A DNA stretch of 64,000 nt from Dipteris shenzhenensis (lineage: Eukaryota), in assembly GCA_047967505.1 (NCBI GenBank), contig CM106538.1; one strand, given 5' to 3'. The stretch's first letter is position 1. Every line of letters begins with the position of its first letter. The notes beneath the pieces are model-generated. The model searched no databases. It was not told the origin of the DNA and saw only the letters and a program-made list of their open reading frames with translations. Shown in pieces: positions 21,083 to 63,200 of this stretch. The position numbers were made by a program, and so were the translations under genes.

Positions 21083-21507
21083 TCACAAGTGAAGCTTAAG
21101 TTACACGAGTAGCTTGACCTGTCTACGATGGGTTCGAGACCCGCTCCACTGGGTCTGAAGGTGGGATGTAAAAATTTCTTTAATTCAACAAATTAAAGTT
21201 CAAATCAAATGACCAACTTTCAAAAAAGCCACAATGAGGCAAAAAAAATTTAGAACGGGGAAAATCAGAGAGAGAGAGAGAGAGAGAGAGAGGATTATAT
21301 GAGCTCATCGAATTTTCTAAATCTTTTTTGGTTTCTTATAAATAGTATGTCCGTTGGACCTCTTAGCTTTCTTATATGGCTTTCGTTGTTTTATACAGGA
21401 TTATGCGCTTCCCTTGTTTGATAACTTCACTGCTAATCTCATAATAGAGTGATATTTAGGTTGTCGATTTCCAATTTTAGACAAATGTGTGTGTGTGTGT
21501 GTGTGTC

Positions 21508-23275
21508 TGTGTGTTTTCAAAAAATTAGAACATCAATTATAAGAAGAAAAAATAGTGTATGTCATGGAGCCCCTACTGCTTAAGGTACCTTGCCACCCAC
21601 CCTCCCTGCAATAGTGTGCCCTCTCCCCCCCCCCCTCCCCTCTTCAGTAGGACCTTTATTCCCTTTCCCATAGTGGGAGTGCATGTGTGTATCTTTTCAA
21701 TCTCCTATATTTGTGTGTGTGGACTCCTCGCTCTACCTATACATGTGCTTTCCTCCCTCCTAGATCCCCCAACCAAAGGTAAACCTCTCTTCCCCTCAAG
21801 TAGTATGTGCATGTGTCCTTTGTGTGCCGTCTCCTCCCCTTTTCAAGGGGCTCTCATCCCCCTCTTGTAGTTGGAATGTGTGTGTCTTCCCTCTCTCTTA
21901 TATACGTCCTCTTCCCTGGTGTGTATTTGTGTGCATGGGCCCCTCTCTATTCCTACACATGCTTCCTGCCTTCTAAATCTCCCCCCCACCCCCCTTTCCC
22001 CCCCCCTCTCTCTCTCTCATATAAATAAATAAATATACTATAATTAATAATATATCATATTATATAAAACATATAATATATTGTATATGTATTATATTAT
22101 ACTCTCTCTCTCTCTCTCTATATATGTATATATATATATAATTCTAGAATATATTATATTATGAAATATATATTATATTATAGGTAATATATTTATTTCT
22201 CTCTCTCTTTGTATATATATATATATACATATATACTATAGTATATATTATATTAGAGGAGAGAGAGGGGGAGAGAATATATCATATACTATAATGTATT
22301 ATAATATTATCTATATATATATATTATATTATTATATATATATAATAAAAGATATTATATAATATTATATATATGTGTAATATTTATATATTTTCTCGTC
22401 CCTTTCTCACACTCTCTCTCATGTCTCTCGCACTTTTTTCTCTATCTCTCTCTCTCTACACTATATATATATATCATACATGCATATAATTCTATAATAT
22501 ATTATATTATGAAATAGATATAATATATTTTAGATAATTTATAATATATATGTATATATACTATATTATAGATAATATATTTATTTCTCTCTCTCTCTCT
22601 CTTTATGTATATATATATATATATTATATTAGAGGAGTGAATATATATTATATACTATAATATATTATAATATAATCTATATATATACTATATATATAAT
22701 AAAATATACTATATAATATTATATATATGTATAATATTTATATATTATCTCGTCCCTCTCTCACTCTCTCTCGTGTCTCTCTCTTGTGTGTTTTCAAAAA
22801 GTTAGAACATCAATTATAAGAAGAAAAAATAGTGTATGTCATAGAACCCCTGCATCCTTAAGGTACCTGGCCACCCACCCTCCCTGCAATAGTGTGAGTG
22901 TGCCATCTCGCCCCCCCCTCCCCTCTTCAGTAGGACCTCTATTCCCTTTCCCATAGTGGGAGTGCATGTGTGTATCTTTTTAGTCTCCTATATTTGTGTG
23001 TGCGGACTCCTCTCTCTACCTATACATGTGCTTTTCTCCCTCCTAAATCACCCAACCAAAGGTAAACCTCTCTTCCCCTCAAGTAGTATGTGAATGTATC
23101 CCATAGTCAATGTGTGCCCCCCCCCTTTTCGAGGGACTCTCATCCCCCTCTTGTAATTGGAATGTATATGTCTTCCCTCTCTCTTATATACGTCCTCTTC
23201 CCTAGTGTATATTTGTGTGCTTGGGCCCCTCTCTATCCCTACACATGTTTCCTGCCTTCTAGATCTCCCCCCTTG

Positions 23276-23322
<47 letters not shown>

Positions 23323-23427
23323 ATATAAATACATAAATAAATAAAAATACTATAATTAATAATATATCATATTATATAAAACATAATATATATTGTATAT
23401 GTACAATATATAATGTATTATATTATA

Positions 23428-23479
<52 letters not shown>

Positions 23480-24245
23480 CTAGAATATATTATATTATGA
23501 AATAGATATTATATATTTTCAATAAATTATAATACATATGTATATATATTGTAATATAGATAATGTATTTATTTCTCTCTCTCTCTCTGTATATATATAC
23601 ATATATATTATAGTATATATTATATTAAAGGAGAGAGAGGGGGAGAGAATATATATCATATACTATAATATATTATAATATAATCTATATATAGATATAT
23701 AGTATATTATTATATATATATAATAAAAGATATTATATAATATTATATATACATGCATAATATTTATATATTATCTTGTCCCTTTCTCACTCTCCCTCTC
23801 TCGTGTCTCTTGCACTTCTCTCTTTATCTCTCTCTCTCTACACTATATATATATATATATCATACATACATATAATTCTATAATATATTATATTATGAAA
23901 TAGATATAATATATTTTAGATAATTTATAATATATTATAATATATATGTATATATATTATATTATAGATAATATACTTATTTCTCTCTCTCTGTATGTAT
24001 ATATATATATATATATTATAGTATATATTATATTAGAGGAGAGAATATATATTATAATATAATCTATATATAGATATATACTATATATATATAATGAAAT
24101 ATATTATATATATATATATGTATATATGTATAATATTTATATATTATCTTGTCCTTCTCTCGCTCTCTCTCTCGTGTCTCTCGTGCTTCTCTCTTTATCT
24201 CTTTCTCTCTACACTATATATACATACATATATATATATATATAA

Positions 24246-24288
<43 letters not shown>

Positions 24289-24300
24289 CCCCTCTCTCTC
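21508..24300. repeat. Tandem duplication of a ~1.28-kb unit with (TA)n/(TC)n mosaic
   Basis: TGTGTGTTTTCAAAAA(A/G)TTAGAACATCAATTATAAGAAG begins units at ~21508 and ~22785, and the following sequence is colinear. Confidence 0.9.
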
Positions 24301-24836
24301 TCTCTATGTTAACAGCTTGTCAGACTACTACAGTCTGCTCTAGCAGACTGGCTGTGCGCGCTAGGCAAACCATGGGTGAATCTCACTTTGACACATGGCA
24401 CGTGCGCATGAGCTTGCTGTAGCTGGCCTAACCATGGACGAATTATACATCAACACATGGTGCACGTGAGGTGAGCGTGACAATGCCACCATTTATTGGC
24501 TGCTCTATACCTTCTGCCACATGCCCGCACGGAGCTCCTCCCAAATTCCGAACCTCCTTCCACCTTCGTCGAGGCTCCCTGGAGCTCCTGAACCTCTGAT
24601 TTTGTGAAGGGGCATCGCTCAGCTTCTTCCATTTCAAACATTTCCTTAAAGAATAGTTATGGAAGTGGAGTAAGGAGCAACTGAATGCATAAGGGATTAG
24701 AGGAGGTATGGGACAATTAGTGGGCTTGGTGTGTGGGGTGGCTAAAAAGAGAGTGTAAAGGGGAGATTTCACGGGGGGTACATAAAAGAATAACTTATAG
24801 TTAGGGAAGTATACATGTGTGTGTGTGTGTGTGTGT

Positions 24837-25836
24837 TGTTACCTAGAAAAGAAATTAGGACAAGAGGCTAGACACTAAGCATGGTGACGCTCTAGGGCCA
24901 TAGAGGAAAGGAGAACGTGAGGGCAAAACATTATCATGGGTGGGGAAAAGGGATTAGAAGGGGAGGGAATGAAGAGGGAGACTATGGCACAAGGGGAAAG
25001 GGAGAGGGGAAAGAGAGCCATGTACATGATGGGAGGAGGAATGTAAAGATCGAGACATCAAGGGAAGAGGGTCATGCTTTATTTGAAAGGAAGGGAAGGG
25101 GGAAATCAAAGTACTAGCTAGGTGGCTTTACAAGAATGAGTGTGTCTCATCAAGGAATAGCCCCCTCCTTTTATAGCCAAGAGAGGGGGTCTCTCCCAAT
25201 AAATGCATCCTCCCACATGCATGGTGTGTGTGGAAGAGTCTCCCATGTGGGCTAGGTGGATACACACTCTCAATTGTGTGCGATAACGCTTGGCCACATT
25301 TTTCCACATATATCAACTCCCATATCCCAAGTCTATGATACTCCCTTGGTCTCTTCCCAATTTTATAATACATTAAAACATCTAGGAGGACAAGTGGAGG
25401 GTTGGCTCAAGGAATCCTGCCACCTCATCCTACTTTCCCCATTATTTAACTTGCATTCTTGGACCTTCTATACCTCCCCCACATGGGCCTATCCTATATG
25501 GAGGGAATAACGCAATATTATATCCATCTCCACCTTTTTTATATTACTTCTCCCATGGACTTTGGGCCATATCTCACTAATGCAGGCATGGGACCGCCTA
25601 GGTGGAGGGGTGGCACATGGAGGAGCCATGCCACCTTAACATTTTATAATATTACTACCATGGATTATGTACAACACACCTTATGGGTCCTCTTATGTGG
25701 AAGGGTGGCACATGGTCATGCCCTACCACCTTAACCCTAGGCCCAATGCACTCCATATTTTATTATACTATTGCCACACATACAAGCACACACTCATATT
25801 TATGCCTTTTTACTTTGGTCAAATTTATCCATAATA
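24837..25836 (-). repeat. 3' LTR of the Gypsy element
   Basis: Direct repeat of 32845-33842. Preceded on the minus strand by a G-rich PPT (poly-C at ~25840-25851 on plus) and ends in ...GGTAACA. Confidence 0.9.
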
Positions 25837-27408
25837 GTTCCCCCCCCCCCCAGGCAGGGAATGCACAACATTTCCATGCCTAGGTCCACCACGCACAAAG
25901 AAGGGCTTGAGGTAACGCTTGTTGATCACCTTCTTGCCATATGGCTCATGTAGCTCCTGAACTTGTATAGACCCATTGCTATGTTCCTTGATGACTTTGT
26001 ATGGACCGGTCCACAGTGGAAGGAACTTCTTATCCATTTGGTGGTCCAATCTATTATCAAAGCATAGCACGACATCCCCCTCAGCAAAGTGTCTCCCATC
26101 CCTTACGAATCATAGCATCCAAGTGGGCCTTTTGTCGATTCTTTTGAATCTTTGTTTGATGTAGGGCAAGGTGTTGGGTTTCATCTAGCTTCTCAAGTTG
26201 CACAAATCTGGCCTCTACATGTTCATCTTCTATCATCCTGTATTCTTGTGCCAATCTCAATGCCGAATCTCTATCTCTAGTGGTAAAACGACCTCAGTAC
26301 CGTACACCAACTCAAAAGGAGTGTGACCTGTAGACGTTTTATGAGTGATGTTGTAAGCCCATACGGCTTCTATGACCTTCTGATCCCATTGGCTCCTATT
26401 CCCTGTAGCCATTTTTTGCATGGTTTTACAAAGGAGGCCATTGGTCCGCTCCGTTTGACCCATGGATGCTGGATAATAGATGCTAGAAGTGCGATGATCA
26501 ATACCCATGCGATCCATGAGCAATTCCACTGCTTCATTTAAGAATGGACTCCCATGGTCAAATACTATTTCCATGGGTGTCCCAAACCTTGTGCGGATAC
26601 ATTCAAATATGAAATTTGAAACTGCCTTACCATTTGCAGCGGGGAGGGCGATAGCTTCAGCCCACTTAGTGACATACTGAGTGGCTACCAAAAGATACTT
26701 CTTTTTGCGGGCAGTCATGGGCAAGGGCTTGACAAAATCTATTCCCCACTTTTGAAACGGATGGATGGACATCACTGGGTGATGTTGCCTAGGATGCAAA
26801 TCCTTCCTACCAAAGAATTGGCATGGTTCACAAGTTTTGCAATGCATAGTGACATCCTTGAACAAAGTCGGCCAATAGTACCCATCATCTAAAATCTTCT
26901 TAGTTGTATAGTCATTGGCATAGTGGCCTCCACAAAATCCATTATGATAATGCTTCAATACCTTAGGTACTTCATCTACATCAATGGCCCATCTTAGTAC
27001 CCCATCCATGCCTTGACGGTACAACACCCCATCAAAGAGGGTGTAATGCCTACTATCTCTGCGGATCTTTTTTCTCTCATAGCTAGTACTTTCTGGAGGA
27101 AAAGAGAAAGCAGTCAAAAACTTGTAGATACTACCATACCATGGATTGCCAACTTCTATGGCCAGCACTAGGGTTACATCAAGACACTCCTCTAAATCAA
27201 TCAAAGCATTCTTCAAGTTGGAACAACCCCCTTTTACAATTTTGAAAGAAAAATCATATTCTTGTAAAACTGCCAACCATTTGGCCAACCGGCCCATGGG
27301 ATTTGGTGATTGAAGAACCTGCTTTGCAAGACCAGTGCTAGTGAGTATAATGAAGGACTTTCTGGCCACATAATGCTTAAATTTCTCAATGTAGAACACC
27401 AAAGACAA
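25825..27408 (-). pseudogene. Gypsy degenerate RNase H C-terminus plus integrase (HHCC, core, GPY)
   Basis: ORF 26257-27408 contains H..GH..YYWPTLFKD..C..CQ, PFQKWGIDF and GQTERTN; WTGPY appears in 25825-26070. Confidence 0.9.
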
Positions 27409-27685
27409 GGCATGTTTGTCAGCCTCAGAGTAGCATCATTTCAGTTTCGAGCAATTGTCAAGAAGCAAATTGAACAAGATACATGAACCGATCCTCCCCT
27501 TGCTGGAGAAGAATACCTGCCAGAGTGTGCTCACCAAACCTAGGATTGATATAGAAAGTCTTTGATCAATCTGGATTGCATAGAATGGGTTCTGAAGCCA
27601 GAGCACTCTTGATTTGTACAAACCCATGATCACAATCCTCATCCCAAGAGAAATCAACTCCATCTTTTAATAGCATAGTAATGGG

Positions 27686-28861
27686 TCACGTCAAAGTAGC
27701 ATATTGATCAATGAAGTGGTGATAGTATCCTGCTAGATTGACAAATGAGCATACCTGACATTTGGTTGTTGGTGGGGAGAGCTTAAGGATGGCTTCTACC
27801 TTCTCGGGGTCAGGCTTGATGCCCTCAGATGAGACAACATGTCCCAGTAACCTCCCTTGAGTGGCTCCAATGGTGCATTTCTTAGGGTTGAGACTGCCAT
27901 TTGCATCATTGACCCTTTGGAAGGCCAACCTAACCTTCATGATGTGCTCCTTACGTGACAAGAATATACATAAATCATCTAAAAACATCTCCAAGAAATC
28001 CCCCAAATAAGGAGCAAACACCATCTGCATAAATCTTTGAAAGGGAGCAGGAGTATTGGTGAGGCCAAATGGCATTACTTTTAATGCAAATGTCCCCCAG
28101 GGTGTGGCAAATGTGGTTTTAAGCACATCTTCTTCGGCAATTCTGATTTGATAAAACCCGGAGTAACCATCATAGAAGGTATACATCTCATGACCACTTA
28201 CCTTCTCAAGAATGAGGTCTTGAAAGGGAAGAGGATGATGGTCCCTCTTGGTGGCTGCATTGAGTTTCTTATAGTCGATGCAGACTCGCCGCTTCTTGTT
28301 TTTCTTTGGGGTGACTACCACTAGTGAAACCCATTCAGTATTGTGAACCGGAACAATAAACCCAGCTTCTACAAGTTTCTGCAACTCTGAGTGCAAAGCA
28401 TCAGTCTGCAGGGGCCCTAATCTCCAATACTTCTGAGCCATAGGCTTTGCATCAGGCTTCAGCTCTATCTTGTGCTCTATGGCAGTCACATGGCAAAGGT
28501 GGCGGTAGCTAGTTGCGAAAAGGTCAGGGAAATCTTTGAACATTTCTAGGAATTTGTCTTTCTCACTTGGAGTGAGGTCTGGGGAAAGTATAAATTCAAG
28601 CTGTTGAGGACTAGCTATTCTTTTTTTTGTAGGTGGCAGGGTTGGAGACACCCCCATCATGTAAACTTCCTCATCTGAGGACTCCTCCCCCCCGTCTGAT
28701 CCTTTCATTGATTCAGACACCAAGGATGAGAGAGTATCACTGTCTTGCTCCTCTTCTTCTTCTGGTTTCGTGGCACCTAGTTGCACCGGGATCTTCTCCT
28801 TAGAAGCACCAAAAGACATGTGTCTTGTCTTCCAATAGCTGACTGCATCACTCTTTCTCAA
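27686..28861 (-). pseudogene. Gypsy reverse transcriptase
   Basis: CIDYKKLNAAT, DGYSGFYQI, MPFGLTN, FLDD, LLGHVVS. Confidence 0.92.
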
Positions 28862-29150
28862 CCATGGTCTCCCGAGTATGGCTGGGTAACTTCCTGCCTG
28901 TATCTTCGATGTCCACTACATAGAAATTGACGGTGGTGGTCAATCCATTGACAGTGATGGGCAAATCCTCAATGACTCCCAGGGTGGCGAGTCGTTGACC
29001 ATCTGCTACCTTGATTTGAGTGGAGGAACACTTTGTGCATTTCAAATTCAATTTCTTTATGATTCGAGGCACCATGATATTACATGCAGCTCCCCCATCA
29101 ACACACACATTTTTTACATGACAATTATCTATGATGACATCTACTGTATG
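28848..29150 (-). pseudogene. Gypsy aspartic protease
   Basis: VDGGAACNIM ... ADG motif. Confidence 0.8.
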
Positions 29151-29290
29151 TGGGTGCTGATCAATTTCTTCAGAGATAGAAGAGACCTCTCATACCTTTC
29201 CCTTTTTCTTGCTCCTCCTTGTTGATAGCCCTTGCTGCAGCTCATGTCTCACCTTAGGGCTTAATGCTATTAGTTAAGGGAGCGTGATGC

Positions 29291-30487
29291 TCAAAGAATG
29301 ATGAGCAAGGTCCTAAATGACCGAATAGTCTTCTTGCCCTGAGCCGATGGGGGCAACCACTTACTCCTACGAGATCTTTTAGTCTTCTCTATTGGCGGGT
29401 CTGCCATCTCAGCATCTGAGGGCTCTGAGAAGGACACCTTCTTCTTGGGGCAGCCTAGTCCATGGTTTGGAGAGGGGTCTGAGGTGGTATGACTTCTTTT
29501 CCCAAAGTCAAGGATCTCTACATCAGAATGCTCAGTGCTAGATTCACTTAGAAGATTCACCCTTGGAATATTGGGACCTTCCGTGTGATAATGACCCTTT
29601 TGGTGGCACTCGTAGCATATAACATTAGCACGGTCTCTTGGAAGGTGGTTGGCTTGATTTCTGATGCCCACCATCTCAAGCCGAATATCAATTCAGGGCC
29701 TTGGCTAGGTCATTGACTCCGGGTTCCTTAGCAGGAGGGGCCGAGGGAGTAGGAACGAGGGGGCTCATGGGCAAGGCTTGGGAAATCTTCTAGATGGAGG
29801 TTGAGGATATACTCCTTGTTGAGGGTAAGCATCTAAGGGAGGACCATAAATTTGAGGTGGAGGCGGTGGATACATCCCTGATGAGGGGTGGGGGTATGCC
29901 CCTAAGTTAGACCCCCTAGGTTGTTGTTGCAAGAATTGAGGGGGTTGCGGAGGGACAATCGTCTTCTTTGAAGCGGGGTCAGACTGAACTTTATCAAACT
30001 TTTAAGCAATCTCATGTGCTAGCACCATAGTTTCTCGATTCTCCCATTTAAGCTTGAGACGGAATTCATCACTTGCTCCTGCTACAAGGTAGCCCAACAC
30101 ATGCTGTCATTCTAGCTCGAAATCTGGCATTGTCCTCCTGCGTGGCAATTAAATGGTCCAAGAGCACGGCCGCTCGATCCACATATCGACGTGCCATCTC
30201 ACCTTCTGACTGCTCAAGTTTGCCACCTATAGGTACACATTCTCCGGCTCCTCTTCTTTGCCGAAATGATCAATCATCACTGTTGTCAACCTTGGCCAGC
30301 TTTGGCAAGCATCTTTGGCCTGCTTCTCATACCACACTTGAGCCAAACCCTCTAGAAATGTGGGAAGAACCAACAGCCATCTATCTTAAGTAAGAAAGTT
30401 GAGAGAAACACAACGGCACTTAAAGGCCACAAGATACTCATTTGGATTTTCTTCAACCCATCCACAAAACACGGGCATATCAGCCAT
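29291..30487 (-). pseudogene. Gypsy gag (disrupted)
   Basis: From ATG 30487: MADMPVFCGWVEENPNEYL...FLEGLAQVWYE...SWPRLTTVMIDHF...KLEQSEGE..RYVDR, then a Pro-rich linker and CYECHQKGH zinc knuckle. Confidence 0.75.
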
Positions 30488-30989
30488 GCTTGGAAAATGG
30501 AAAAGAGAGAGATGAAATGAGGCTTATCTATGGGCAAACAATGGAAAGAGGTAGCTTGAACTGAAAATCAGGTGAAGATACATCCACAAAGCACACATAG
30601 GCAGGGTAGGGTGTGACTGGTGTATTGTGAAATACTACATGCGAAGAATCTTCAGCATAGAATAGCTCATAGACAATCTTAAAAGGACCAACCCTCATGA
30701 TATCACATCCATCTTTACAAGCGAGGGTTAGAGACACGGCGCTGCATGAGGTTCATCAAGGCAAACAAGAATGCCATGACAAATGTCAACAGTTGGAGAG
30801 TTTGCACATCACCTTCAGCTTCTTCCAGTTCTTGTAATCGCCATGCTATTTCTTCAAGGGGTGTGCGGTCTGGCATCCTTCTTTTGAGCAATGTCCTTGA
30901 GGACCTTTTTGATGATCTTTTGAAGTCGGTAAACTCGTATCAAATATGCCCAACACTTAGTTTCATGATGACCACAACCTTTGCGTTCC

Positions 30990-31455
30990 TTACAAACGAT
31001 CACCCTCCTTCGTGGCTTGCAGCTTTGTTTGGGTGGTGCTTCCACTCGCGTCATACGTGATTGAAGTACAAGCTTCACGTGCCAAGAAATCAGCAACTAT
31101 ATTTTGAGCTCGAGGGATATGCTAAATTTTTACCTCTTCAAATTGTTGGCATAGTTCCAAATGCTTGTTGATGTCGTGGAACCAAGCCTTTGCTCTGCAC
31201 CTTCCACCTTCCACTAACTTGTTCACACACGAGTTGAGAATCTCCTTGCACCTCAAGTTGCTTGATGCGATGTTCTTGTGCCTTTTGTAGCCCAAAAATG
31301 AGTGACGAGTACTCAGCTTGGTTACAAGTACTTGCTGGTGCAAACTTGCTATAACAATACACCTCACCCCCTAGTGAAGTGAGCTTCACACCCACACCAG
31401 CAACCTTGGTCGAAGGTTTGTATGCGCCATCAAATTGGAGGATCCAAGATGTCAT
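30990..31455 (-). pseudogene. Archaeal-type RNase HI (aRH) as a stand-alone ORF upstream of gag
   Basis: MTSWILQFDGA...NQAEY...VQGDSQLV...HIPRAQNIVADFLA; one frameshift near 31160 and one in-frame TAG. Confidence 0.88.
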
Positions 31456-32295
31456 CACACCAAGACTAAAATCCGAACATCCCAAGTTTCTCAGTAGTCC
31501 AAGATAGGTAGAAGGAGAGGGTGGGGAGAATTCAATACTTGAGCCAAATGTTTAGCACCAAATAAACTTGCAATCCTTTTGTTGATAGTTTATCTTTATA
31601 CCAAAAAGAATTACAATTTGAAGCTCAAAATGAGGCACAAAGAGTTGATTAGGTACAAAGGGATTCCTTGGTCAAAACATTACCAGCTATAGCTGAGCCC
31701 TAGAAACCTTTGTAGTGAGATTGAGAATAACCCATTCAAGACGAGCTTATCCACAAGAATTAATAAGCAGATGCACCAAATCTCCCCCCAAGCTTGGGGA
31801 GCATCCCACCCTTCAAAGAAGGACACCCTTTTAATTACCTCCAAAGCAGCAAGTAGCTCGATCACCGCACAATGAGTAGAATTAAAATCAAAGTTCTCCT
31901 AGCGTATCACTAGTTCTTCACCTTGAATCATCCACGGTGTATCATCCCACCCATCGTCTCCTTGAGCAATGCATTGTACAATCAATTATTGTAGATCGAC
32001 ATGAAGATCAAGAAAGAGATCTCGCCCATTGGTAGCCGTAAGGCATGGAGGACCAGGCACCAAATCCTTAAACTCGTCGAGAAGTGACATAAATATCCAC
32101 CCTCCTCGTGTGGCGTGCATCCGTGAAGTGAACTTGGAAAAGTTCCAAATCGGTGATCTAGTAGGAGATGTGAATAGAGCACATGAAATGAAATACTTTT
32201 GCTTTTTATAGCAAGAGGAAACTCCCCACGGTTAGAGAGTTACAGTTCCCGAGATTTCAATATATAGCAAAATTCATTACATTTTCATCACTTCC

Positions 32296-32366
32296 TACTT
32301 GCTAGCCCAATGATAAGTCTCCCTTTTGTGAAGGGGGAGGTCTTGGGTTCAAATCCCACTCTTTAA
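32296..32366 (+). ncRNA. tRNA-like (GUG/His anticodon) module lacking an acceptor stem; not a functional tRNA
   Basis: A-box-like TAGCCCAATGATAAG, arm CCCTT-TTGTGAA-GGGGG, variable loop AGGTC and T-arm TTGGG-TTCAAAT-CCCAC, in canonical tRNA spacing. Confidence 0.6.
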
Positions 32367-32820
32367 TAAAAAGAGAGGAGAGGAGAGGAGGAGAAGAGAA
32401 AGAGGAGAGGAAGAAGAAGATAAGAGAGGGGGGCACAGGATCTGTTACAGTTTTGCAGAAACCCAAAAAAATTGTCCACGACCAGAAGACACAGGAGCCT
32501 AAAAAACCATCACAATCTATCTACGATGCGCACGGGTGTACACAGTGGATGCACGTAGGAGCTCAGAGGGAGCACAGATGTTACAGGTCTACAATTACGA
32601 CCGGTACGAGCAGAAGATTCGCCAACCAGAATACACACAGGAACCGTGAGCAGAAAGCAGGCAGACTGGAAGTGCAGAAGTAGGGAGGTTTTGTAGCCGT
32701 AGAGACAAGGAAGGCACACAGTTTAGAGGTGCAAAAGTAGAGAACTACGCACGGAAGAGGCCGTAGAGCCGCACCCAGTCGTAGGAGTAACAGATTTTAC
32801 ACCACTAGCCATGGAGATTT

Positions 32821-32840
32821 CGATCCCAATAGCCACACCA
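32821..32840 (-). promoter_or_regulatory. Primer binding site, probably tRNA-His
   Basis: TGGTGTGGCTATTGGGATCG lies 4 nt after the 5' LTR. It resembles the complement of the plant tRNA-His 3' end (...CCCAGCAGCCACACCA, recalled, not verified). Confidence 0.7.
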
Positions 32841-32844
32841 TTTC

Positions 32845-33842
32845 TATTACCTAGAAAAGAAATTAGGACAAGAGGTTAGACACTAAGCATGGCAATGCTC
32901 TAGGGCCATAGAGAAAGGAGAACGTGAGGGCGAAACGTTATCATGGGTGGGGAAAAGGGATTAGAAGGGGAGGGAATGAAGAGGGAGACTATGGCACAAG
33001 GGGAAAGGGAGAGGGGAAAGAGAAGCATGTACATGATGGGAGGAGGAATGTAAAGATCGAGACATCAAGGGAAGAGGATCATGCTTTATTTGAAAGGAAG
33101 GGAAGGGGGAAATCAAAGTACTAGCTAGGTGGCTTTACAAGAATGAGTGTGTCTCATCAAGGAATAGCCCCCTCCTTTTATAGCCAAGAGAGGGGGTCTC
33201 TCCCAATAAATGCATCCTCCCACATGCATGGTGTGTGTGGAAGAGTCTTCCATGTGGGCTAGGCAGATACACACTCTCAATTGTGTGCGATAAGGCTTGG
33301 CCACATTTTTCCACATATATCAACTCCCATATCCCAAGTCTATGATACTCCCTTGGTCTCTTCCCAATTTTATAATACGTTCAAACATCTAGGAGGACAA
33401 GTGGAGGGTTGGCACAAGGAATCTTGCCACCTCATCCTACTTTCCCCATTATTTAACTTGCATTCTTGGACCTTCTATACCTCCCCCACATGGGCCTATG
33501 CTATATGGAGGGAATAACGCAATATAATATCCATCTCCACCTTTTTTATATTACTTCTCCCATGGACTTTGGGCAATATCTCACTAATGCAGGCATGGGA
33601 CCGCCTAGGTGGAGGGGTGGCACATGGAGGAGCCATGCCACCTTAACATTTTATAATATTACTACCATGGATTATGTGCAACACACCTTATGGGTCCTCT
33701 TACGTGGAAGGGTGGCACATGTCATGCCCTGCCACCTCCACCCTGGTCCCAATGCACTCCATATTTTATTATACTATTGCCACAAATACAAGCACACACT
33801 CATATTTATGCCTTTTTACTTTGGTCAAATTTATCCATAACA
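32845..33842 (-). repeat. 5' LTR of the Gypsy element
   Basis: Starts TGTTATGG on the minus strand; direct repeat of 24837-25836. Confidence 0.9.
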
Positions 33843-34097
33843 GTTCCCCCCCCCCCAGGCAGGGAATGCATAACATTTCCATGCCTGGGTCCACCACGCA
33901 CAAAGAAGGGCTTGAGGTAACACTTGTTGATCACCTTCTTGCCATATGGCTCATGCAGCTCTTGAACTTGTACAGACCCATTGCTACGTTCCTTGATGAC
34001 TTTGTATGGACCGGTCCACAATGGAAGGAACTTCTTATCCATTTGGTGGTCCAATCTAGTATCAAAGCATAGCACAACGTCCCCCTCAGCAAAGTGT
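33843..34097 (-). mobile_element. Extra PPT plus integrase C-terminus in front of the 5' LTR
   Basis: Near-identical to 25837-26092 (LPLWTGPY); ends abruptly in (GT)n. Confidence 0.88.
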
Positions 34098-34259
34098 GTG
34101 TGTGTGTGTGTGTAAAGAAATAAGTGTCTCTGTGTGTGAGATACATTTACTAATTAATATTATTGTCTCTGTGTGTGTGTATGTGTGTGTGTGGGGGGGG
34201 GGGGGCTGGGTGGATGGGTGGGTGGGTGGGTGTTTGTGTGTGTGTGGCCCACCACTCGC

Positions 34260-42942: not shown

Positions 42943-43487
42943 TGGTATCAGAGCCTTGTTCGTGGTAAGGAGCTCAAGAAAGCAAGCCAAGTTCGTGGTG
43001 TCCTGGTAAGAGGACCAGTGTTGCTTTCTTATTTCGAGTTTGGGAGCAAATCTCTGCAGGTAGCACAGCCAGAAGTGCAGGAGTGCACTGTTTTAGATTG
43101 AGACGCCCTTCGCGGTGTGGCGAGAGTGCAGTATATGCTGCGGGTGTGGGCGAAGCCCTCAATGACTTTATTTTTCTGATTTGAGGCCGTTTCGGGGCCC
43201 GTTTTGAAGGCGGAAGTTCTTCGCAGGCACTCAGAAAAAGGCCCTGTTTTTTGCTGTGCGACCACTGCACGGCTAGTTGGTGGAAAGGTGCCTCAGAAAT
43301 TGCATCGTATGCCTATGTGCAGAGATATTGGGAGTTACAGATTCATGCCTGTTGCCTGTTGATGCAAAATTGTCACTAGGAAGTGACTGTGTGGTGAAAT
43401 ACCACTTTTGTCAGTTTTGCAGATCTGCCCGTGTGAGGCAAAAAGCTGTGTTTTTTGCAGTGACAGAATATTTTGCAGTGTTTTGTA

Positions 43488-46400
43488 ATGGCATCTGATT
43501 CTCTTTCACAGATTGTCACTGAAAAGCTTGACAAGAACAACTTCCAGGCATGGAAGTTTAGAATGACGAATTTCTTGATGGGAAAAGGCTATTGGGAATT
43601 CATTACAGGAAATGAAGAAGAACCTGTTCTTCCTAATGTTCCTAGTCAACAGGAAATGCAGGCATTCAAAGGATGGCATGAGAGAGCCAGGAAAGTTATG
43701 TATTGGCTGTCTATCAGTATTTCAGACTCCATGATTGTGCATATTCAGGATGCAAATACGCCAAAGGAGGCATCGGATACTTTAGCAAAAATGTACAGCA
43801 CAAATACGCAAGCCAGGAAAATGCAACTCAAACAGGAGTTGCACAATGTGCAGAGAGAAAACATGAGCATCAATGACTACCACATGAAGGTGAAGAAAAT
43901 TGCGGATGCACTTGCTTCCATTGGGTCGCCAGTGGATGATGACGATTTGGTTTCTGTGACCTTGAATGGTCTAGGAAAGGATTATGCACAGTTCCAGACA
44001 TCCATTGCCGTCCGTGAAAATTTTCCTGATTTTGAGGAGTTGATTGCTCTTCTAATTTCTGAAGAGCAGAGAAATGGGGGTGCATCTTCTTCAGCAGGAA
44101 CTTCAAAAGAAAGTGTCTTCTACTCAAATGCTGGCAGAGGTAGAGGCAGAGGTAGAGGAGGCCGATCTGCAGGCCGTGGTAGAAATTAGAATATGCAGCA
44201 AATGCAAGAAAACCAGTCCTATGCAGGAGGACGTGGTAACTCTAGAGGCAGGGGGAGCCAAAGAGGCCGTGGTGGATGGCAGAGAGGCCAAAATGCAAAC
44301 AGCAATGTTGAATGCTACTATTGTGGCAAAATGGGTCATATGGCTAAGGACTGCTATAAAAAGCAGAATGACATTATGAGTGGAAAATTGCAGCAAGGCA
44401 ATTATGCATCTTCAAGCAGGCAGGGTGATGATAGAAATGAGCATCTATTTATGGTGCAGCATATGACCAATTCTGTGACAAGTGCAGAAGAACAAAATGA
44501 TGTGTGGTATGTTGACTCAGGTGCGTCAAACCACATGACAGGTCATGCAGAATGGATGCAAGATGCAAGGAAAATGGAAAAACCAAGATTTGTGGAGACG
44601 GCGGGTGATGATACTGCACATCCTATTGTGCAGATTGGCAAAATTCCTTCGTCTATGCAGGATGGGAAAAAGAAATACTTGTCTGATGTATTTCATGTCC
44701 CGAACATCACCAAGAACCTGGTTTCTGTTGGTCAGATGGTTGAGCAGGGCTTGTAGGTCAGATTTAATCCTCATGGATGCTTTGTTGAGGATATGAAAAA
44801 TAATGGTCGCTTGATAGCAAAAGGAAAGAAGAAGGGCAGGATGTTTACGTTGGATGCGGACATGCCTGAATTGAGTGCAACAATGTTTGCACATGGGACC
44901 GGCGTAGTTGCAGATATTGATATCTGGCACAAACGCATTGGTCATGTTAATATACAGCGACTTAAATCAATGCAAGCCCAAAATATTGTTGCAGGATTGC
45001 CTAAATTCAAGGTTGCAGAAATGCACAAGGTTTGTGAAGCCTGTTAATTTGGGAAACAGGCAAGGAAACCTTTTCCTAGGCATGTTCAAGAGAGTAAAAA
45101 GCCATTGGAATTAATCCACTCTGATGTGTGGACTACAAAAGCTGCATCTATTGGAGGCTGTCACTATTTTGTCACATTTATTGATGACTTCAGCAGAAAA
45201 CTGTGGGTGTATTTTATGAAAAAGAAAAGTGAAGTGTTTGGGCACTTCAAAGCTTTCAAAGCTATGGTTGAAAAAGAAACAGGCCTGCAAATAAAATGCC
45301 TAAGGTCAGATGGAGGGGGAGAGTACCTCTCAAATGAGTTTGCAAGGTTCTTGCAGGAGCATGGTATAAAGCAGCAATATTCATGCAGTCATACCCCACA
45401 GCAAAATGGAATTACAGAAAGAAAAAACAGGCATATTGGAGAGGTGTCTCGGGCTATGCTAAATGAAAAAGATCTACCAGATTATTATTGGGTTGAAGCA
45501 GTTGCTACAGCAGTCTATATAATGAACAGGACTCCCACTGCAGCAATACATGGCATGACGCCAGAGGAGATGTATACTGGTAGGAAACCAGATATTTCTC
45601 ATTTGAAGATTTTTGGTTGCATTGCTTATGTCCATGTGCCAGATGAGTTGAGGTCCAAGTTGGATCCAAAAGCTAAGAAGTGCGTCTTTATTGGTTATTC
45701 TCTGCACAGCAGAAAGGGTATAGATGCTATAACCCTTCTACATGTAAGTTCACAGTGAGCAGAGATGTTGTTTTTGATGAGATGAGCAGCTGGTATAAAC
45801 CAGTAAATGTGATGATTGATGTAGATGCACAAAATGGTAATGCTGCACAGAATGCACAGCAGCAATCACAAAATATCAGTGGACCTGGAGTGTCCTCTAC
45901 CAGTGGTTCACATACTTCGCCATGGACAGGCAGATTGAGATCAGGAGAATCCCCTCAAAGCAATGCAGATAGTGGTACGCAGGTATCACGAAAAGGAAAA
46001 GAGAAGGTAGATCAGCCCATGTTTGATGTGAATGCAGGTCACTCTTATGTGGATGGTGAATCCAGTGGCTCAGAACAGAGCATTGATGATGAGTTGGGTA
46101 TTCCTTCTGTTGTTACACCTGGAGTAAGGAAGACCAGGGATGTTTTGAGAGCACCGGGAAGTGAGCCTATTTTGCGCACGTCTACCAGGGTTAGGTATCC
46201 TGTGGATAGGCTGAAATATGATGGATTTACAGCCATTCACTATGCCTATATGGTCAAAGTGATACAGGAACCAGAACCCACTTCTTTTGAGCAAGCCATG
46301 GGAAATGAAAAATGGGAGAAAGCCATGGATGAAGAAATGGATGCCTTGGATGCTAATGCTACATGGGAATTGGTGCCTTTGCCTAAAGGCAAGAATGCAA

Positions 46401-47920
46401 TTGGCTGTAAGTGGGTTTATAAGATCAAGCACAATGCAGATGGTTCTGTGAATAGATACAAGGCAAGATTAGTTGTCAAGGGGTATGCACAGACATATGG
46501 CATTGATTATGAAGAAACTTTCAGCCCGGTTGCAAGGATGGCAACCGTAAGAGCATCCATTGCTATGGCTGCATTAAAGGGATGGTCTTTACATCAGATG
46601 GATGTAAAGAATGCCTTCTTGCATGGTGATTTGCAAGAAGAGGTCTTTATGGAGCAGCCAGCAGGTTATGTTCATGCTATTCATCCTGAGTTTGTTTGCA
46701 GGTTGAGGAAAGCCTTGTATGGCTTGAAGCAAGCACCTAGAGCATGGTCTGACAAGATAGGACAGTATATTGTCACTATTGGCTTTCAGATTTCCAAGGT
46801 AGATTTCTCACTCTATGTGAGAAAAACAGAGAAAGGGATTATGCTGCTGGTCATTTATGTTGATGATTTGATCATCACAGGTGATAGTGATGAAGATATC
46901 CTTCATGTGAAAATGCTATTGAGGCAGAAGTTTGAGATGAAGGATTTGGGAGAGCTGCGTTATTTCTTGGGCATTGAGGTGATTAGATCACCAAGTGGGA
47001 TACAGCTCTTACAGAGGCAGTATGGATTGGACATGCTGTCCAAATATGGGATGACAGGCTGTAAGCCTATTTCAGTTCCTTTGGAGCAGAATGTGAAGCT
47101 GAGCACAGATGTAGGTGAGCTTCTGGAAGACCCTACTATGTACAGACGCATAGTAGGAAGTTTGATTTACATGACTATTACCACGCCAGATTTGAGCTAT
47201 GCTGTTGGGTTGGTAAGTCAGTTCATGCAGGCTCCAAGGAAACCGCATTTGGATGCGGCTAGACACATACTCAGGTATGTGAAGTCCACATTGCAGTATG
47301 GACTATTTTATGAGGCTGGGGTTCAGATACAGTTGCATGGATACACTGATGCTGATTGGGCTGGTAGCATTTCAGATAGACGATCTACCAGTGGATATGT
47401 GTTCTCTTTTGGGAGTGCTGCAGTCACTTGGAGCAGCAAGAAACAGCCTACAGTTGCCTTGTCAAGCACAAAGGCTGAGTACAGGGGTGCAGCAATGGCT
47501 GCATGTGAGGTAGCTTGGTTGCATAAGCTACTCTATGATATGCATCAGTCTACAGATGGGCCAGTTGTCATTTATTGTGACAACATGAGTAGTATACATT
47601 TGGCAAAGAACCCAGTCTTTCATGCCAGAACAAAGCACATTGAGGTGCATTATCACTATGTGCGGGAGAAGGTTTTACTAGGTCTCATTGATCTAGTTTA
47701 TGTCAGCACAGAGGATCAGGTAGCTGACATCTTCACGAAAGCATTGGGCGCAGAGAAGCTGCGCAAGTTCAGAGACCTGCTTGGTGTGCAGGATTTGGGA
47801 TTGAGCTCGAGGGGGAGTGTTGAGATATCGAGCTCCACTCGCGATGCCAGGGTGACCGTTATGTATTTATGTCACCGATTTGTTAGCTGGAGATGCGGTT
47901 GGTACACCGCCCACGAATAA
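43488..47920 (+). pseudogene. Copia gag-pol polyprotein (gag, CCHC, PR, INT, RT, RH)
   Basis: CYYCGKMGHMAKDC, WYVDSGASNH, IHSDVW..RSDGGGEY, YKARLV, YVDD, YTDADWAG, KHIEV. Three stops and one frameshift (~45705). Confidence 0.95.
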
Positions 47921-57191: not shown

Positions 57192-60100
57192 TGTAATAAA
57201 ACTCTCTCTCTCTTAGACACAGCATTAGATCCAAGGGCAACTTGCTCTCCTGGATCCCCCTTTTGGGCTTATATTTATTTCTCTGTAAAAGGTTACAGAA
57301 ATCTCAGTACAAAAATTGTGTAAAAACGTGAATAGACTAGAATTTACAAGGAGACTAGCTCCCTTTCTTGTCAACATGCCACATGTCACTATTCTAGCCT
57401 ATTTCTAGAATACAAGCCTCAAAGGGCCTCTTTTTCGGGGTCACATGGACCATGTTTCGTTTCTTTACCAAGCTCCTTGATCTCGGGGTATTTTAAACCC
57501 GTCTTTGGTACCTGAAATGTTTTCTAAATGCATTTCGACTAGGCACCCATTAATCGTTAGTCTTTGCATGCAAATAAATAAAAAAAACTCTGACTAATCC
57601 TAGTCACTTGGGGTGTCCCCCTCTAATCACATGTGCACAAAACATATAAACAGATTCTTGGGTTAACCGAGATTAATTACTCTCGATAAATAATTAAAGG
57701 CTTGATTATTCATCAAAGCACTTTAATTAATGTCGAGTCTCTCCAACCGAAGTTGGCACATCTTGGTTAATTAAACCAAGTCTTCCTAACCGAAGTTAGG
57801 TTCTTTGACCAATAAATATTTCTCTTTGAACACAATTAAATATATTGAGAACATTTAATCATGATCAAATAATTGGTCATTTAAATCTTTTTCTTTGGAG
57901 TATTTACATCTTGGTGACATCCCCTTGGCTTCTATTCAATTGACCTCAACTGAAAAGCCTCTTTGTAAATATCCAAGAGCTGTGGATGATCTGATAGCAT
58001 ATCCTCATCCATCCACTTGGCATTCAATGCTGAATAGTTCTTGAATTTTACTGTGAATTTTCCAATGCTCTGGTAAGTCCAATCTGAAAGCCACCTCATT
58101 TCTCTCTTTTGTAACCTGAAAAGGTCCATATAATACCTAGGAGATAGCTTAACATAAACTTTTTCTTTACCCTTGAGCTTCCTGAGCCTTGCTTTCTCAA
58201 ACTTTAGGAGTACCCAGTCTCCTTTGAGATCCATCTGCCTTCTGTGCTTATCTGTAGCCTTCTTGTGCTTTTCCTGAGATCTTTCAATGGCTGTCCGAAC
58301 CTGGCTGAAAGTTGTTTCAAGGTCTCTTACATACTTGCAAATATCTCATCTTTGGTCCTAAGTATGGGTGGAAGAGCCACCTTCCCATAAATGACCTCAA
58401 ATGGACCTTTTCCAGTGGAGCTGTGAACTGTATTATTATAAGCAAACTCCACTAGTGGGACATACTTTTCCCAGTCTGATTTCTGCTCAGCCACGTAGCA
58501 TTTCCGCAGATCCAAAACTGTTGAATTTGCCACTTCACTTTGACCATCTGTTTGGGGTTGAAAAGAAGAGAAAAAATTCAGTTTTGTCCCCATATTATCA
58601 AATAAAGCTCTTCAGAATAAACTAGTCATCTTGGGGTCTTGATCACTGACAATGGATTTAGGCATACCATGATGCTTGAAAATCTGTACCAAAAAGAGCT
58701 CGGCCATGTGATCAGCCTTTATGGTTGTGCGCGCTGGAATAAAATGGGCTTGCTTACTGAATCTATCAATAATAGTCCATATTCCATCATTTCTAGACTT
58801 TGACTGTGGCAAGTCAAAGATAAAATCCATTGCAATACTTTCCCATGGTGCTTGAGGCACGGGAACAGGCATCGATAAGTAGGTGTCTTATCTCTGTCAT
58901 ACTTGACTTTCTGACAAATAAGGCATTTTGTGACAAACTGGTGTATGTCCTTGCGCATACCTGGCCAATAAGGCATTTTGCGAATACCTCTCAATAGCTT
59001 GGGTTGTGGCTGTAATCCCTCGGTGTCCTGCATACGGAGGTGCATGGCATTCATCCAAAATCTTTTGCCTCATCTCTTGGGTGATGCATAAATAGTCATC
59101 TTTCATCAAGTACCCATCTTTCATTGAATATTGATTGGAGGACTGTCCCTCTTGTATTTGCTGAAATATTTTACCAAAATCAACATCATTGGCATATTGC
59201 TCCCTCATTTCCTCAAGATCCCTGTGATGTGCAATTGTCACATTATGTACCTGAGGTCTTCGGGACAAAGCATCAGCCACTCTATTTCTTGCTCCCGGAG
59301 TATGGACAATCTGAAAATGATACATTGACAGCATGTTTGCCCATTTCATATGCTTTTTAGAGAGCTTAGTTTGTGATAAGAAATATCTTAGACTTTGGCG
59401 ATCAGTTTTGACAGTAAAATCTGCACCCAAAAGATAATGCTTCCATGTATTCACAGCATGAACTACAGCCAACAATTCTTTTTCGTACTTTTCCAAATAT
59501 CTCTCAGCATCACGCAATCTTCGGCTTTCGTATGCTACCACGTGTCCATTCTGATGCAATGCAGCCCCAACACACTCTCCACAAGCATCGCAATCAACAT
59601 CAAAAGCTTGATAAAGATCCGGGACTACAAGAATAGGCTCTGTAGTCAACTTCTCCTTGAGTGTATTGAATGTTTTCTCCTGTGACATTCCCCATGTGAA
59701 GGCTGCATTTTTCTTGATAAGATCATGTAGTGGAACTGCAATATCAGAAAAATGCCTGATGAATCTCCTATGATAGGAGCAGAGTCCCAAAAAGCTACAT
59801 ACCTCATGCACAGTTTTCAGCTCTAGCCATTCTTGGATGGCTCGGATCTTTGCAAGATCCATCTGTATCCCATTCTTAGATATTATGTGCCCCAGATAAT
59901 GGATCTCTTCCGAAAAGAATTCACTTTTCTTGGTGCAAAGCTGATGATTTTGAAGTCCTTGAGACACCAAAGCAAGATGTTCTCTGTGCTCTTCTTCTGT
60001 CTTTGAGAAGACCAATCGAAGGAGTGACTTGCTTTGGATTTCCATGGAACATCTGATCAGTGTCAAGAACTCTGCTTAGCTCTTCAATTTTAATCCCTAA

Positions 60101-60265
60101 TCTCAGGGCTAAGTCCAAAGATCTGAAATTGTGTGTAGACCCTGGATCAAATAGGATTAATGCTTGTTGATTTCTTACCTTTCCCCATGATAGCAAAAGC
60201 TCTTTTTCCTTTGGGTCTGAGGTACTACCCAAAACATCTGGGACTGCTCCCACCATTTGTCTCGG
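57192..60265 (-). mobile_element. Chromovirus-like Ty3/Gypsy, 3' part (PR, deleted RT, RH, INT, chromodomain-like tail, 3' LTR ~57192-57919)
   Basis: LFDPGSTHNF, YLGHII, DCDAC..YESR..EKELLA, TDRQSL, VADALSR, PWESIAMDFI, PQTDGQSE, VKFKNY...W. PPT AAGGGGA precedes TGTCA at 57919; the left LTR end is uncertain. Confidence 0.85.
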
Positions 60266-63200
60266 TGATACTGAGAGGGGGAAGAGAGGAGAGGAAGTAA
60301 GCAAGAGAGTGAGAGTGAGAGAGACACAATAGTGCGGGTGTGAAGTGATGAGTGAGCCACACCACAAACTCACTTATGTTGTATTAGGATTAGGTTTATT
60401 CTATGACTGTCTTAAGACAGTCATAGGTGTCCTATCTTTAATTCTTTTAATTAAGGGTAGGCAATGTGCCTTTACCCCAACAACCTCCCACCTAAAGGCC
60501 AATGTGCCAAAAAGGGGAGAAAAGAATAAAAATTACAGCAATATACAGTTACTGTATACTAGACCATAAAGTAAGAATGGTCTCATCCTAATCCCATGAT
60601 GTGGCGGCAATGTGCAAACCGCTCTGTAGGCAAGCTCTTAGTGAGCAAATCTGCAGGATTATCATCAGTATGTACTTTCACAAGCTCAAGACGCTTGTCT
60701 TCCAGTACCTCCCTGATGAAATGATATTTCACTTCTATGTGCTTGGTCTTCTGATGAAAGACCGGATTCTTTGCCAACATGATAGCACTCTGACTATCAC
60801 AATGCAAAACTGGCATGTCACTTGTAATGCCCAAATCTCCCACCAGCCGAGTAAGCCATATTGCTTCCTTGCAGGCCTCAGTGGCTGCAACATATTCAGC
60901 TTCTGTGGTTGACAGTGCAACGCATTTCTGCAACCGAGACACCCATGATATAGCACCTCCTGCAAATGTGAAAATATAACCGGTAGTAGATTTCCGGTTA
61001 TCTGCATTCCCTGCATAGTCTGAATCTGTAAAACCATGCACCAATGCATCCTTCCTACCATAGCATATGCACAAGTCTTTGGTACCTTTGAGATACCTCA
61101 AGACACCTTTCACTGCTTCCCAATGCCGCTTGCCTGGATTTGCCATATACCTGCTGATGACTCCCACCGCAAAAGCAATATCCGGACGAGTGGCAACCAT
61201 GGCATACATCAAAGATCCAACTGTAGATGCATACGGAACCTTGGCCATTTCAGCCTTATCATCATCTGATCTGGGGCTGTCCTTACTGCTGAGTTTTAAA
61301 TGTGGAGGCAACGGGGTACTAATGGACTTCCCCCCCTCCATTTTAAACCTCTGCAGTACTTTGTCAATATACTCTTTCTGTGACAGAAACAAAAGTCCCT
61401 TGGACCTGTCACGAGTAATACGCATGCCAAGAATATGATTTGCATCACCCAAGTCTTTCATGTCAAAAGACTTATGCAGTTGTTTCTTCAAAACACTGAG
61501 ATTTACTGGCAATAAGCATGTCATCCACATACAGAATGAGTAGCATCAAACTGCCATCCTTTGCCCGTTTGGTGTATAAGCAATGATCGGTCTCACACCG
61601 AAGATATCCTTGGGACTGCATGAAGGCATCAAACTTCTTGTACCATTCCCTTGGCGCCTGCTTGAGTCCATACAAGCTCCTCTTGAGCTTACACACAAGC
61701 TGTTCTTTCCCTTTAACAGCATATCCCTCTGGCTGACTCATATAGATCTCATCATGAAGATCTCCGTGAAGAAAAGCTGTCTTCACATCCATCTGACATA
61801 AATCCATGTCGTCATGAGCAACAAGAGCTAACACTGCTCTCAAAGTAGTCATCTTGACTACAGGGGAAAAGATCTCATCAAAGTCAATGCCCTTTTCCTG
61901 CTTAAAACCCTTGGCAACCAATCTGGCCTTATACCGAGGTAAAGCATTTGAATCCACTTTGACTTTGTAAACCCACTTGCATGGCAAAACCTTTCTGCCT
62001 GCAGGTAACTGCACCAAGTCCCATGTATCATTCTGAAGTAGGGAGTCCATTTCTGACTGCATGGCTTTCTCCCACTTCTTTTTCTCTGTTCTTCCCATAG
62101 CTTCCTTGAAGCTGGAAGGCTCACCACAATCTGTCAACATGATAAAATCAGCCACATTATTGGCTCCTGGAACAAACCTGACAGGAGGCCGTTGTGCACG
62201 GGAGCTCCTCCTAACAAAATGTTCCGGATTAGGCTGCTGTCCAGCCTGTTCTTCATGAATGACAGGTGGCTGTACCACCATATCTGGCTGTGCTACAGCT
62301 TCATCTGCTGGCATATCCAGTGGTACATCATTGGCAAAATCATCTGGCTGATTTCCAGCCTGTATACCCTCTTGAACAGGGTGATCTGCAGCAGGCTGCT
62401 GCTGCATATAAATGGGCATTCTTGGTTGTCCAACATCATCATAAATAACCCTCCTGTATTCCACAGGTTGCACGGGTTCCTTGTGTACACTATCTTCTTT
62501 GAAGATGACATCATTGCTGCGTATAATCTTCCGTTTAACGGGATCCCATAACCTGTACCCCATTTCACCTTCATCACCATATCCCATAAAGATGCATCTG
62601 ATAGACTTTGGATCCAGCTTGGTGCGTAGATCTTTGCGTACATGAGCAAAGCACTCGCAGCCAAATACCCGTAAGTGCTTATATGAGGGTGGCTTGCCAG
62701 ACCACACCTCCTCTGGCACTTTCAACTCCAAAGCCTTATTTGGTGACCTGTTAATAATGTGAACTGCTGTTTGCACGGCTTCTGCCCAAAAGCCATGGGG
62801 TAATGCAGCATAAGACAACATACATCGAACCTTCTCCTGAACAGTTCGATTCATCCGCTCACTTGCACCATTTTGAGATGCATTATGAGGGGCTGTGAGT
62901 TCTTGTTTGATGCCCTTAGCTTGGCAAAACTGCACAAAAGCATGTGACACATACTCACCCCCATTATCGGATCTGAGGCATTTCAGCCTACGACCTGTCC
63001 GATTCTCCACCTGAGCGACAAATCTCTTGAAAGCATCTAGGGCATCTCCCTTATGCTTCAAGAAATAGACCCACACCTTACGTGTGGCATCATCAATGAA
63101 AGTAATAAAATATTTGGCACCCCCTAGTGATAACTGTGGCATCTCACACAAATCAGTGTGCACTAGATCAAGTGGTGCTCTATTCTGAGGAGTTCTCCTC

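Follow-up and report, generated by a model that had tools for sequence, protein, structure and literature searches.

The closest described relatives of the locus analysed here are LTR retrotransposons of the Tat type in which an additional RNase H (aRH) is encoded by an ORF of its own upstream of gag. This arrangement, designated structure #4 by Biryukov and Ustyantsev in 2023 (PMC10508981), is recorded in the part of their text available to us for four mosses (Tat B) and Selaginella tamariscina (Tat C), and the same authors ask how the aRH domain works from a separate ORF. The layout with aRH before gag is called "pre-capsid" in the accessible portion of PMC13468544, and REXdb, as far as its available text goes (PMC6317226), did not yet list it. 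In the corresponding portion of Ustyantsev et al. 2015 (PMC4408406), Tat-like elements of mosses are described as apparently free of extra ORFs, and captured foreign ORFs, for example PMD and Tr28, are reported for Tat elements.

That RNase H should be encoded by a separate gene in front of gag is in itself a puzzle. Since the layout is in print, the position of aRH is not novel, and the preliminary description of the present DNA, in which this position was regarded as undescribed, has to be revised on that point. In the window, that is, the whole stretch of 64,000 nucleotides that was analysed, we found on the minus strand what is, with a probability of about 0.7, a decayed LTR retrotransposon belonging by its layout to the Tat-like "pre-capsid aRH" type, whose leader encodes aRH together with a protein termed ORF-X and a small one termed ORF-Y'.

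Anatomy of the host element

Self-alignment of the window revealed a repeat pair (34097–32847 and 26092–24839) with 96.6% identity over 1254 nt. The parts of the element outside the leader are as follows.

33843..34097, minus strand: duplicated end of the integrase gene with poly-G, ahead of the 5' LTR, containing a second instance of the integrase C-terminal frame
32845..33842, minus strand: 5' LTR, 998 bp, TGTTA...TAATA in the window copy, from the alignment with the 3' LTR
32829..32840, minus strand: candidate primer binding site, beginning with TGG 4 bases past the LTR end, read from the sequence
29291..30487, minus strand: gag, from the ATG at 30487, with several stops and frame changes and a degenerate zinc-knuckle region
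25825..29189, minus strand: pol, encoding protease, reverse transcriptase, native RNase H and integrase in this order, split over several frames
25837..25851, minus strand: polypurine tract of 12 G, then AAC, immediately before the 3' LTR
24837..25836, minus strand: 3' LTR, 1000 bp, starting with TATTA and ending with TAACA

The two LTRs, the polypurine tract and the gypsy domain order on the minus strand place the element among the Ty3/gypsy retrotransposons. The LTR termini of the family are TGTTA...TAACA, from which the window copy deviates at the end of the 5' LTR and at the start of the 3' LTR, and a poly-G tract lies ahead of both LTRs. In pol, Pfam models matched for the protease (Asp_protease_2, E 8.7e-5, just under the cut-off), the reverse transcriptase (RVT_1, 6.2e-23), the native RNase H (RT_RNaseH, 2.2e-8) and the integrase (Integrase_H2C2, 2.2e-11; rve, 2.6e-13), and gag gave a match to Retrotrans_gag with an E-value of 0.0033 and 18 bits, under the Pfam cut-off of 24.1. 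In the translation of 27435–26257, the usual acidic positions of the native RNase H appear substituted, as judged by motif reading in what is a broken copy. With gag and pol broken by several stops and frame changes, the window copy is dead. A second copy of the internal region of the element was not found within the 64-kb window.

Because the 255 extra nucleotides upstream of the 5' LTR (33843–34097) repeat the integrase end, they look like the remnant of a preceding, truncated copy that has the 5' LTR in common with the present one. The composite element is bounded on both sides by a (CA)n microsatellite (in the region 33843–34125 and at 24815–24836). Together with the duplicated integrase end, these flanks suggest a tandem or recombinant array, which may later have been truncated at microhomology.

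Elsewhere in the window, a second, distantly related gypsy-type element is located on the minus strand at 58369–64000; its reverse transcriptase and integrase are 24–31% identical to those of the studied element, and its long frames run past the window end. Long open frames of 241, 188, 236 and 747 codons on the plus strand at 43464–47917 probably belong to another mobile element. Just downstream of the 3' LTR lies an AT-rich block (21500–24300; GC 0.25), containing direct repeats spaced by ~1.28 kb and many shorter repeat families.

Genes of the leader

The leader, from the LTR end at 32845 to the gag ATG at 30487, is 2.36 kb long and contains in sense order ORF-X, aRH, ORF-Y' and ORF-Z, followed by gag. 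Its features are given below.

32303..32359, plus strand: tRNA-like fragment, antisense to the element, with the anticodon loop GUG, beside a CT-rich run at 32362–32440
31680..32090, minus strand: ORF-X, 136 codons and a stop codon, interrupted here by two in-frame stops; covered by homologues from end to end
30990..31455, minus strand: aRH, stand-alone additional RNase H, 154 codons, Pfam RVT_3, with intact relatives
30715..30876, minus strand: ORF-Y', 53 codons here and 54 in relatives, with an acidic N-terminal part and a C-terminal hydrophobic helix
30528..30698, minus strand: ORF-Z, 56 codons, open in the window copy

The preliminary description had located five frames on the minus strand, namely ORF-X (32120–31680), aRH (31455–30990), ORF-Y (31054–30715), ORF-Z (30698–30528) and gag (from 30487), all of which are present there, and it had reported an overlap of aRH with ORF-Y and gaps of 16 and 40 nt. 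The recomputed gaps are 224 nt between ORF-X and aRH, 113 nt between aRH and ORF-Y', 16 nt between ORF-Y' and ORF-Z, and 40 nt between ORF-Z and gag. The two short gaps were thereby reproduced, and the overlap is replaced by the 113-nt gap.

For comparison with other copies, contigs of two DNA runs (X1 and X2) were used, amounting to 185 and 177 pieces, respectively, at a likeness of at least 80%. These contigs bridge ORF-Z, ORF-Y' and aRH, further aRH and the end of ORF-X, and finally the start of ORF-X and the LTR end. As the leader is collinear in the other copies, the leader carrying ORF-X, aRH and ORF-Y' belongs to the family, and a nested insertion of the cassette is ruled out, in keeping with the earlier view that the cassette is native to the element. 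No LTR or internal repeat bounding the leader ORF region was detected in the repeat analysis of the window.

The tRNA-like fragment scored 21 bits with the Rfam tRNA model (E 0.41; model positions 8–63) against a gathering score of 29, and ARAGORN called no tRNA at 32303–32359; the contigs of other copies reach 32361, so that the fragment is included in the family leader. An antisense ORF on the plus strand (30746–31060; 104 aa from its ATG, 119 codons from stop to stop) extends across the aRH end and ORF-Y' and is longer than either sense frame there; its exact look-up was negative. In the window as a whole, 181 stop-to-stop frames of at least 74 codons are found on both strands (2.8 per kb). 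Long frames being so common, frame length alone is weak as evidence.

The assignment of 31455–30990 to aRH, made in the preliminary description, was borne out both by Pfam and by intact 154-aa relatives whose two ends correspond to those of the window copy. RVT_3 was matched in two frames (31551–31138, E 2.6e-15; 31370–30990, E 6.5e-6), and two breaks occur in the window copy, a single-base frameshift near 31159 and an in-frame stop at 31124–31122. A search of 5.8 billion protein clusters yielded 8 relatives with E ≤ 0.001 among 20 candidates, with ~79–83% identity to the window. P0001 and P0002 are intact proteins of 154 aa, the start and end of which coincide with window positions 31455–30990; the same holds for P0077, which matched RVT_3 (4.6e-29) and RNase_H (2.5e-8), and 154 aa is also the length of 8 of the 15 members listed in one cluster and of 6 of the 8 in another. 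All four acidic catalytic residues are kept in the intact relatives according to motif reading. Among the other copies, the stop is replaced by another letter in all 21 covering contigs, and the extra base is absent from 6 contigs of X1 (full depth) and 2 contigs of X2 (17.7 of 32.2 depth). Because intact 154-aa relatives exist and the breaks are read otherwise in other copies, aRH is a real stand-alone gene of the family that is privately broken in the window copy. It ends 503 nt upstream of the gag ATG and is accompanied by a second RNase H, the RT_RNaseH domain in pol. Searches with the aRH protein gave 85 pattern matches in the JGI metagenomes and 2 in IMG/VR, none of which was confirmed.

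ORF-X was searched for with the frame 32231–31680, read through its two stops, as the query. A HMMER scan of 1.84 billion representatives gave 8 hits with E ≤ 0.001, comprising 6 real ones and 2 spurious ones (P0051 and P0053, large proteins with bacterial surface-protein domains), which were dropped. P0046 (136 aa; E 2.1e-47; 60% identity) spans ORF-X from 32090 to the stop at 31680, and 9 of the 11 members of the nearest 90% cluster also have 136 aa. Since the homologues begin at the second ATG (32090), ORF-X consists of 136 codons; the gene proposed at 32120–31680 was therefore correctly recognised as one frame with two stops, and its length of ~146 aa was overestimated. The more distant homologues are P0049 (135 aa, 38% identity) and the P0050 group (138–147 aa, 29–30%), and the homologues overall range from 131 to 147 aa with 29–60% identity. 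The three lineages show 33–40% mutual identity and share 23 nearly invariant columns, with many tryptophans and hydrophobic residues. In the intact relatives, sense codons occupy both positions at which the window copy has stops, and 3 of the 4 contigs covering the first stop have a different reading there. An open frame of such length would not survive neutral drift to 33–40% identity, and we therefore take ORF-X, as far as protein comparisons can tell, to be a real gene under selection, representing a conserved protein family of its own. Its distant homologues (the P0049 and P0050 groups) may belong to other elements or represent host genes. A word-index protein search with ORF-X returned nothing among 155 candidates, a false negative, since HMMER found P0046; because this search missed a full-length homologue of 60% identity, its nulls for queries carrying ORF-X need care.

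Members of ORF-X and aRH were found on contigs of equal size (8128, 1403 and 1283 nt), from which we infer that they probably lie on the same contigs. Within the same lineage, identity to the window is 60% for ORF-X as against 80–82% for aRH. Moreover, in one contig, 523 nt covering most of ORF-X (31530–32052) are replaced by 514 unlike letters, and aRH shows ~85% DNA identity. The faster divergence of ORF-X and the replaced stretch could reflect relaxed constraint or recombination.

With regard to the nature of the ORF-X protein, no Pfam family, F-box included, was detected in 22 members, none of which matched PMD or Transposase_28 even at E ≤ 10, and the window frame likewise gave no Pfam match to PMD or Transposase_28. 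Two AlphaFold models (pLDDT, 74.7 and 75.6; pTM, 0.68 and 0.67) predict an N-terminal part of three helices and, after it, three beta-alpha units. Foldseek with the two models found no match at E ≤ 0.001 in PDB and the BFVD viral models, a VIA-wide structural scan gave a best Z of 5.4 for STAS domains, rated as common by the tool, and the ORF-X profile reached a best E-value of 0.84 against PDB sequences. A relation of ORF-X to aRH was rejected (hhalign probability, 0.1). In the Atlas feature search, F-box clusters appeared at 0.86–0.88, under the 0.9 line, and an LP-x-DL-like motif lies, by our own reading, within the N-terminal helices of the distant lineages; among the fold matches from the whole-model searches there was no F-box or LRR structure, and an F-box relation is a lead, not a finding. 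Collectively, ORF-X is a new protein family with a predicted fold of moderate confidence and no known relatives outside its own family.

Of the ORF-Y initially proposed at 31054–30715, the distal part (30876–30715; ORF-Y') stands, being matched by 23 relatives, and the half overlapping aRH falls away as two frames joined by an assumed frameshift. The relatives belong to 9 clusters with E ≤ 0.01 among 17 candidates; 20 of the 23 distinct sequences have 54 aa, the remaining three have 55, 59 and 81 aa, and one sequence is present on 13 contigs. They are 74–96% identical to the window, which is at least the identity of aRH, and start at or just ahead of the ATG matching 30876. None of the 23 extends upstream toward aRH within the searched lengths of 40–130 aa. 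The codon missing from the window copy (53 versus 54) is explained by three additional bases that 5 contigs of X2 have. The best 19-residue Kyte-Doolittle window of ORF-Y' (1.79) covers residues 24–42 of 54 and is followed by a polar tail of 12 residues, so that the peptide is predicted from its sequence to carry one hydrophobic helix close to its C-terminus and a short polar stretch behind it, as is characteristic of tail anchors. No Pfam family was found for it, and variation along it is fairly even. As the protein collection takes open frames only, the counts of open ORF-Y' copies are no proof of selection. The earlier claim that the leader contains sense accessory ORFs besides aRH holds for ORF-X as a conserved family and for the 54-aa ORF-Y' as a frame open in many copies.

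The length of ORF-Z is ordinary for chance frames in the window. It had no match in an exact look-up, Atlas or Pfam, and no weight is placed on the absent matches, because the word-index search had given a false negative for ORF-X. X1 and X2 each include one contig in which 89 other letters stand in place of the junction of ORF-Y' and ORF-Z (30692–30752), which holds the ATG of ORF-Z, and a 293-nt deletion (30488–30780) removes ORF-Z, again in one contig per run. In both runs, coverage along the stretch is deepest in the bin that contains the body of ORF-Z. ORF-Z is probably a chance frame, its chance of being real amounting to roughly one in four.

Expression, putative roles and rival explanations

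In the leader, 40 ATGs precede the gag ATG against 39.9 expected, and 8 ATGs are found within the 755 nt ahead of ORF-X. As AUGs are not depleted, gag would be out of reach of scanning ribosomes and ORF-X difficult for them to reach, and leaky scanning to gag, one of the modes suggested in the preliminary description, is unlikely. The upstream genes and gag would more likely be expressed from different RNAs, either spliced or internally started, or by shunting or reinitiation. RNA folding of 30715–30488 gave z = −0.72, with no sign of a structured element. Two RNA runs compared with the stretch yielded 0 reads, a result that carries no weight for or against expression.

Because the pol RNase H looks degenerate in our own reading, aRH may act in trans, supplying RNase H activity for reverse transcription. 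ORF-X would be an accessory protein that evolves fast and most likely serves as an adaptor binding other proteins; as it has neither a Pfam family nor a fold match, any function proposed for it is a guess. ORF-Y' may be a small tail-anchored membrane peptide or, alternatively, an upstream ORF tuning gag translation. A bolder interpretation, which we consider rather unlikely, is that of a "complex" retroelement with three to four accessory genes, in which ORF-X would be a rapidly changing adaptor, possibly F-box-like, directed against a host defence, aRH the RNase H acting in trans, and ORF-Y' (perhaps also ORF-Z) membrane or regulatory peptides, all produced from polycistronic or alternatively spliced RNA as in retroviral and pararetroviral accessory genes.

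Other explanations were weighed against the presence of ORF-X, aRH and ORF-Y' as genes of the leader. If aRH alone were functional, ORF-X, ORF-Y' and ORF-Z would be frames that arose by chance or persist as relics within a long leader without coding function, a view favoured by the abundance of frames of at least 74 codons in the window, by the lack of a Pfam family for all three and of a fold match for ORF-X, by the inflation of the ORF-Y' counts through ascertainment of open frames, and by ORF-Z being without any support. Neutral DNA, however, would not keep 131–147 aa and 23 nearly invariant columns in ORF-X homologues at 29–40% identity, and the moderately confident AlphaFold models of ORF-X also speak against this view, which we judge improbable. 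Little credence is also given to the idea that ORF-X is a host gene fragment which the element picked up and carries passively, without using it in its life cycle. Although such capture of foreign ORFs is known for Tat elements from the portion of PMC4408406 cited above (PMD, Tr28) and ORF-X diverges much faster than aRH, each ORF-X lineage comprises numerous copies that differ slightly and lie on different contigs (clusters with 11 and 12 members), which fits repeats and not a single host gene, and the intact 136-aa copies probably reside with intact aRH on the same contigs. It is very unlikely, finally, that the full four-ORF cassette is real, with ORF-X, aRH, a ~113-aa ORF-Y overlapping aRH, and ORF-Z. 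Its frames do exist, and ORF-Z is intact here and lies in the bin with the deepest coverage in both DNA runs; yet the ORF-Y' relatives invariably lack the upstream extension, the contigs with the replaced ORF-Y'/ORF-Z junction and those with ORF-Z deleted run counter to a conserved cassette, and the length of ORF-Z is what chance would give.

Comparison with known systems

The preferred reading, a decayed pre-capsid element with ORF-X, aRH and ORF-Y' in its leader, is closest to structure #4, with which the window element shares the gypsy domain order and a free-standing RNase H ORF between the primer binding site and gag. The two differ in that the published account, in its available part, describes the aRH ORF only, whereas the window leader adds ORF-X and ORF-Y'. 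In the available main texts on Tat elements, no description of ORF-X or ORF-Y' was found. The element apparently combines a known architecture with an undescribed accessory gene family, ORF-X, and an undescribed small ORF, ORF-Y'.

Ogre elements and Tat lineage IV (PMD-coiled coil), as well as other Tat elements with extra ORFs (PMD, Tr28), likewise have an additional ORF in sense orientation before gag. In contrast to these, ORF-X is much smaller (136 aa), has no PMD or Transposase_28 domain in 22 members, and stands beside a stand-alone aRH. The likeness of ORF-X to F-box proteins lies in the Atlas values under the 0.9 line and in the LP-x-DL-like motif, and the difference lies in the lack of a Pfam or fold match.

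The plant pararetroviruses (Caulimoviridae) have a polycistronic pregenomic RNA in which short, close sense ORFs precede the capsid and pol genes, and an AUG-rich leader. The leader in the window, known here from its sequence alone, similarly contains short, closely spaced sense ORFs and is rich in AUGs, but no sequence or fold similarity was found between the two systems, and no transactivator gene was identified in the window element. ORF-X beside aRH and a small ORF after it are concrete candidates for the expression, recruitment or packaging of aRH, and their presence would run against the published position, according to which extra ORFs are missing from moss-type Tat elements and were acquired at a later stage of plant evolution.
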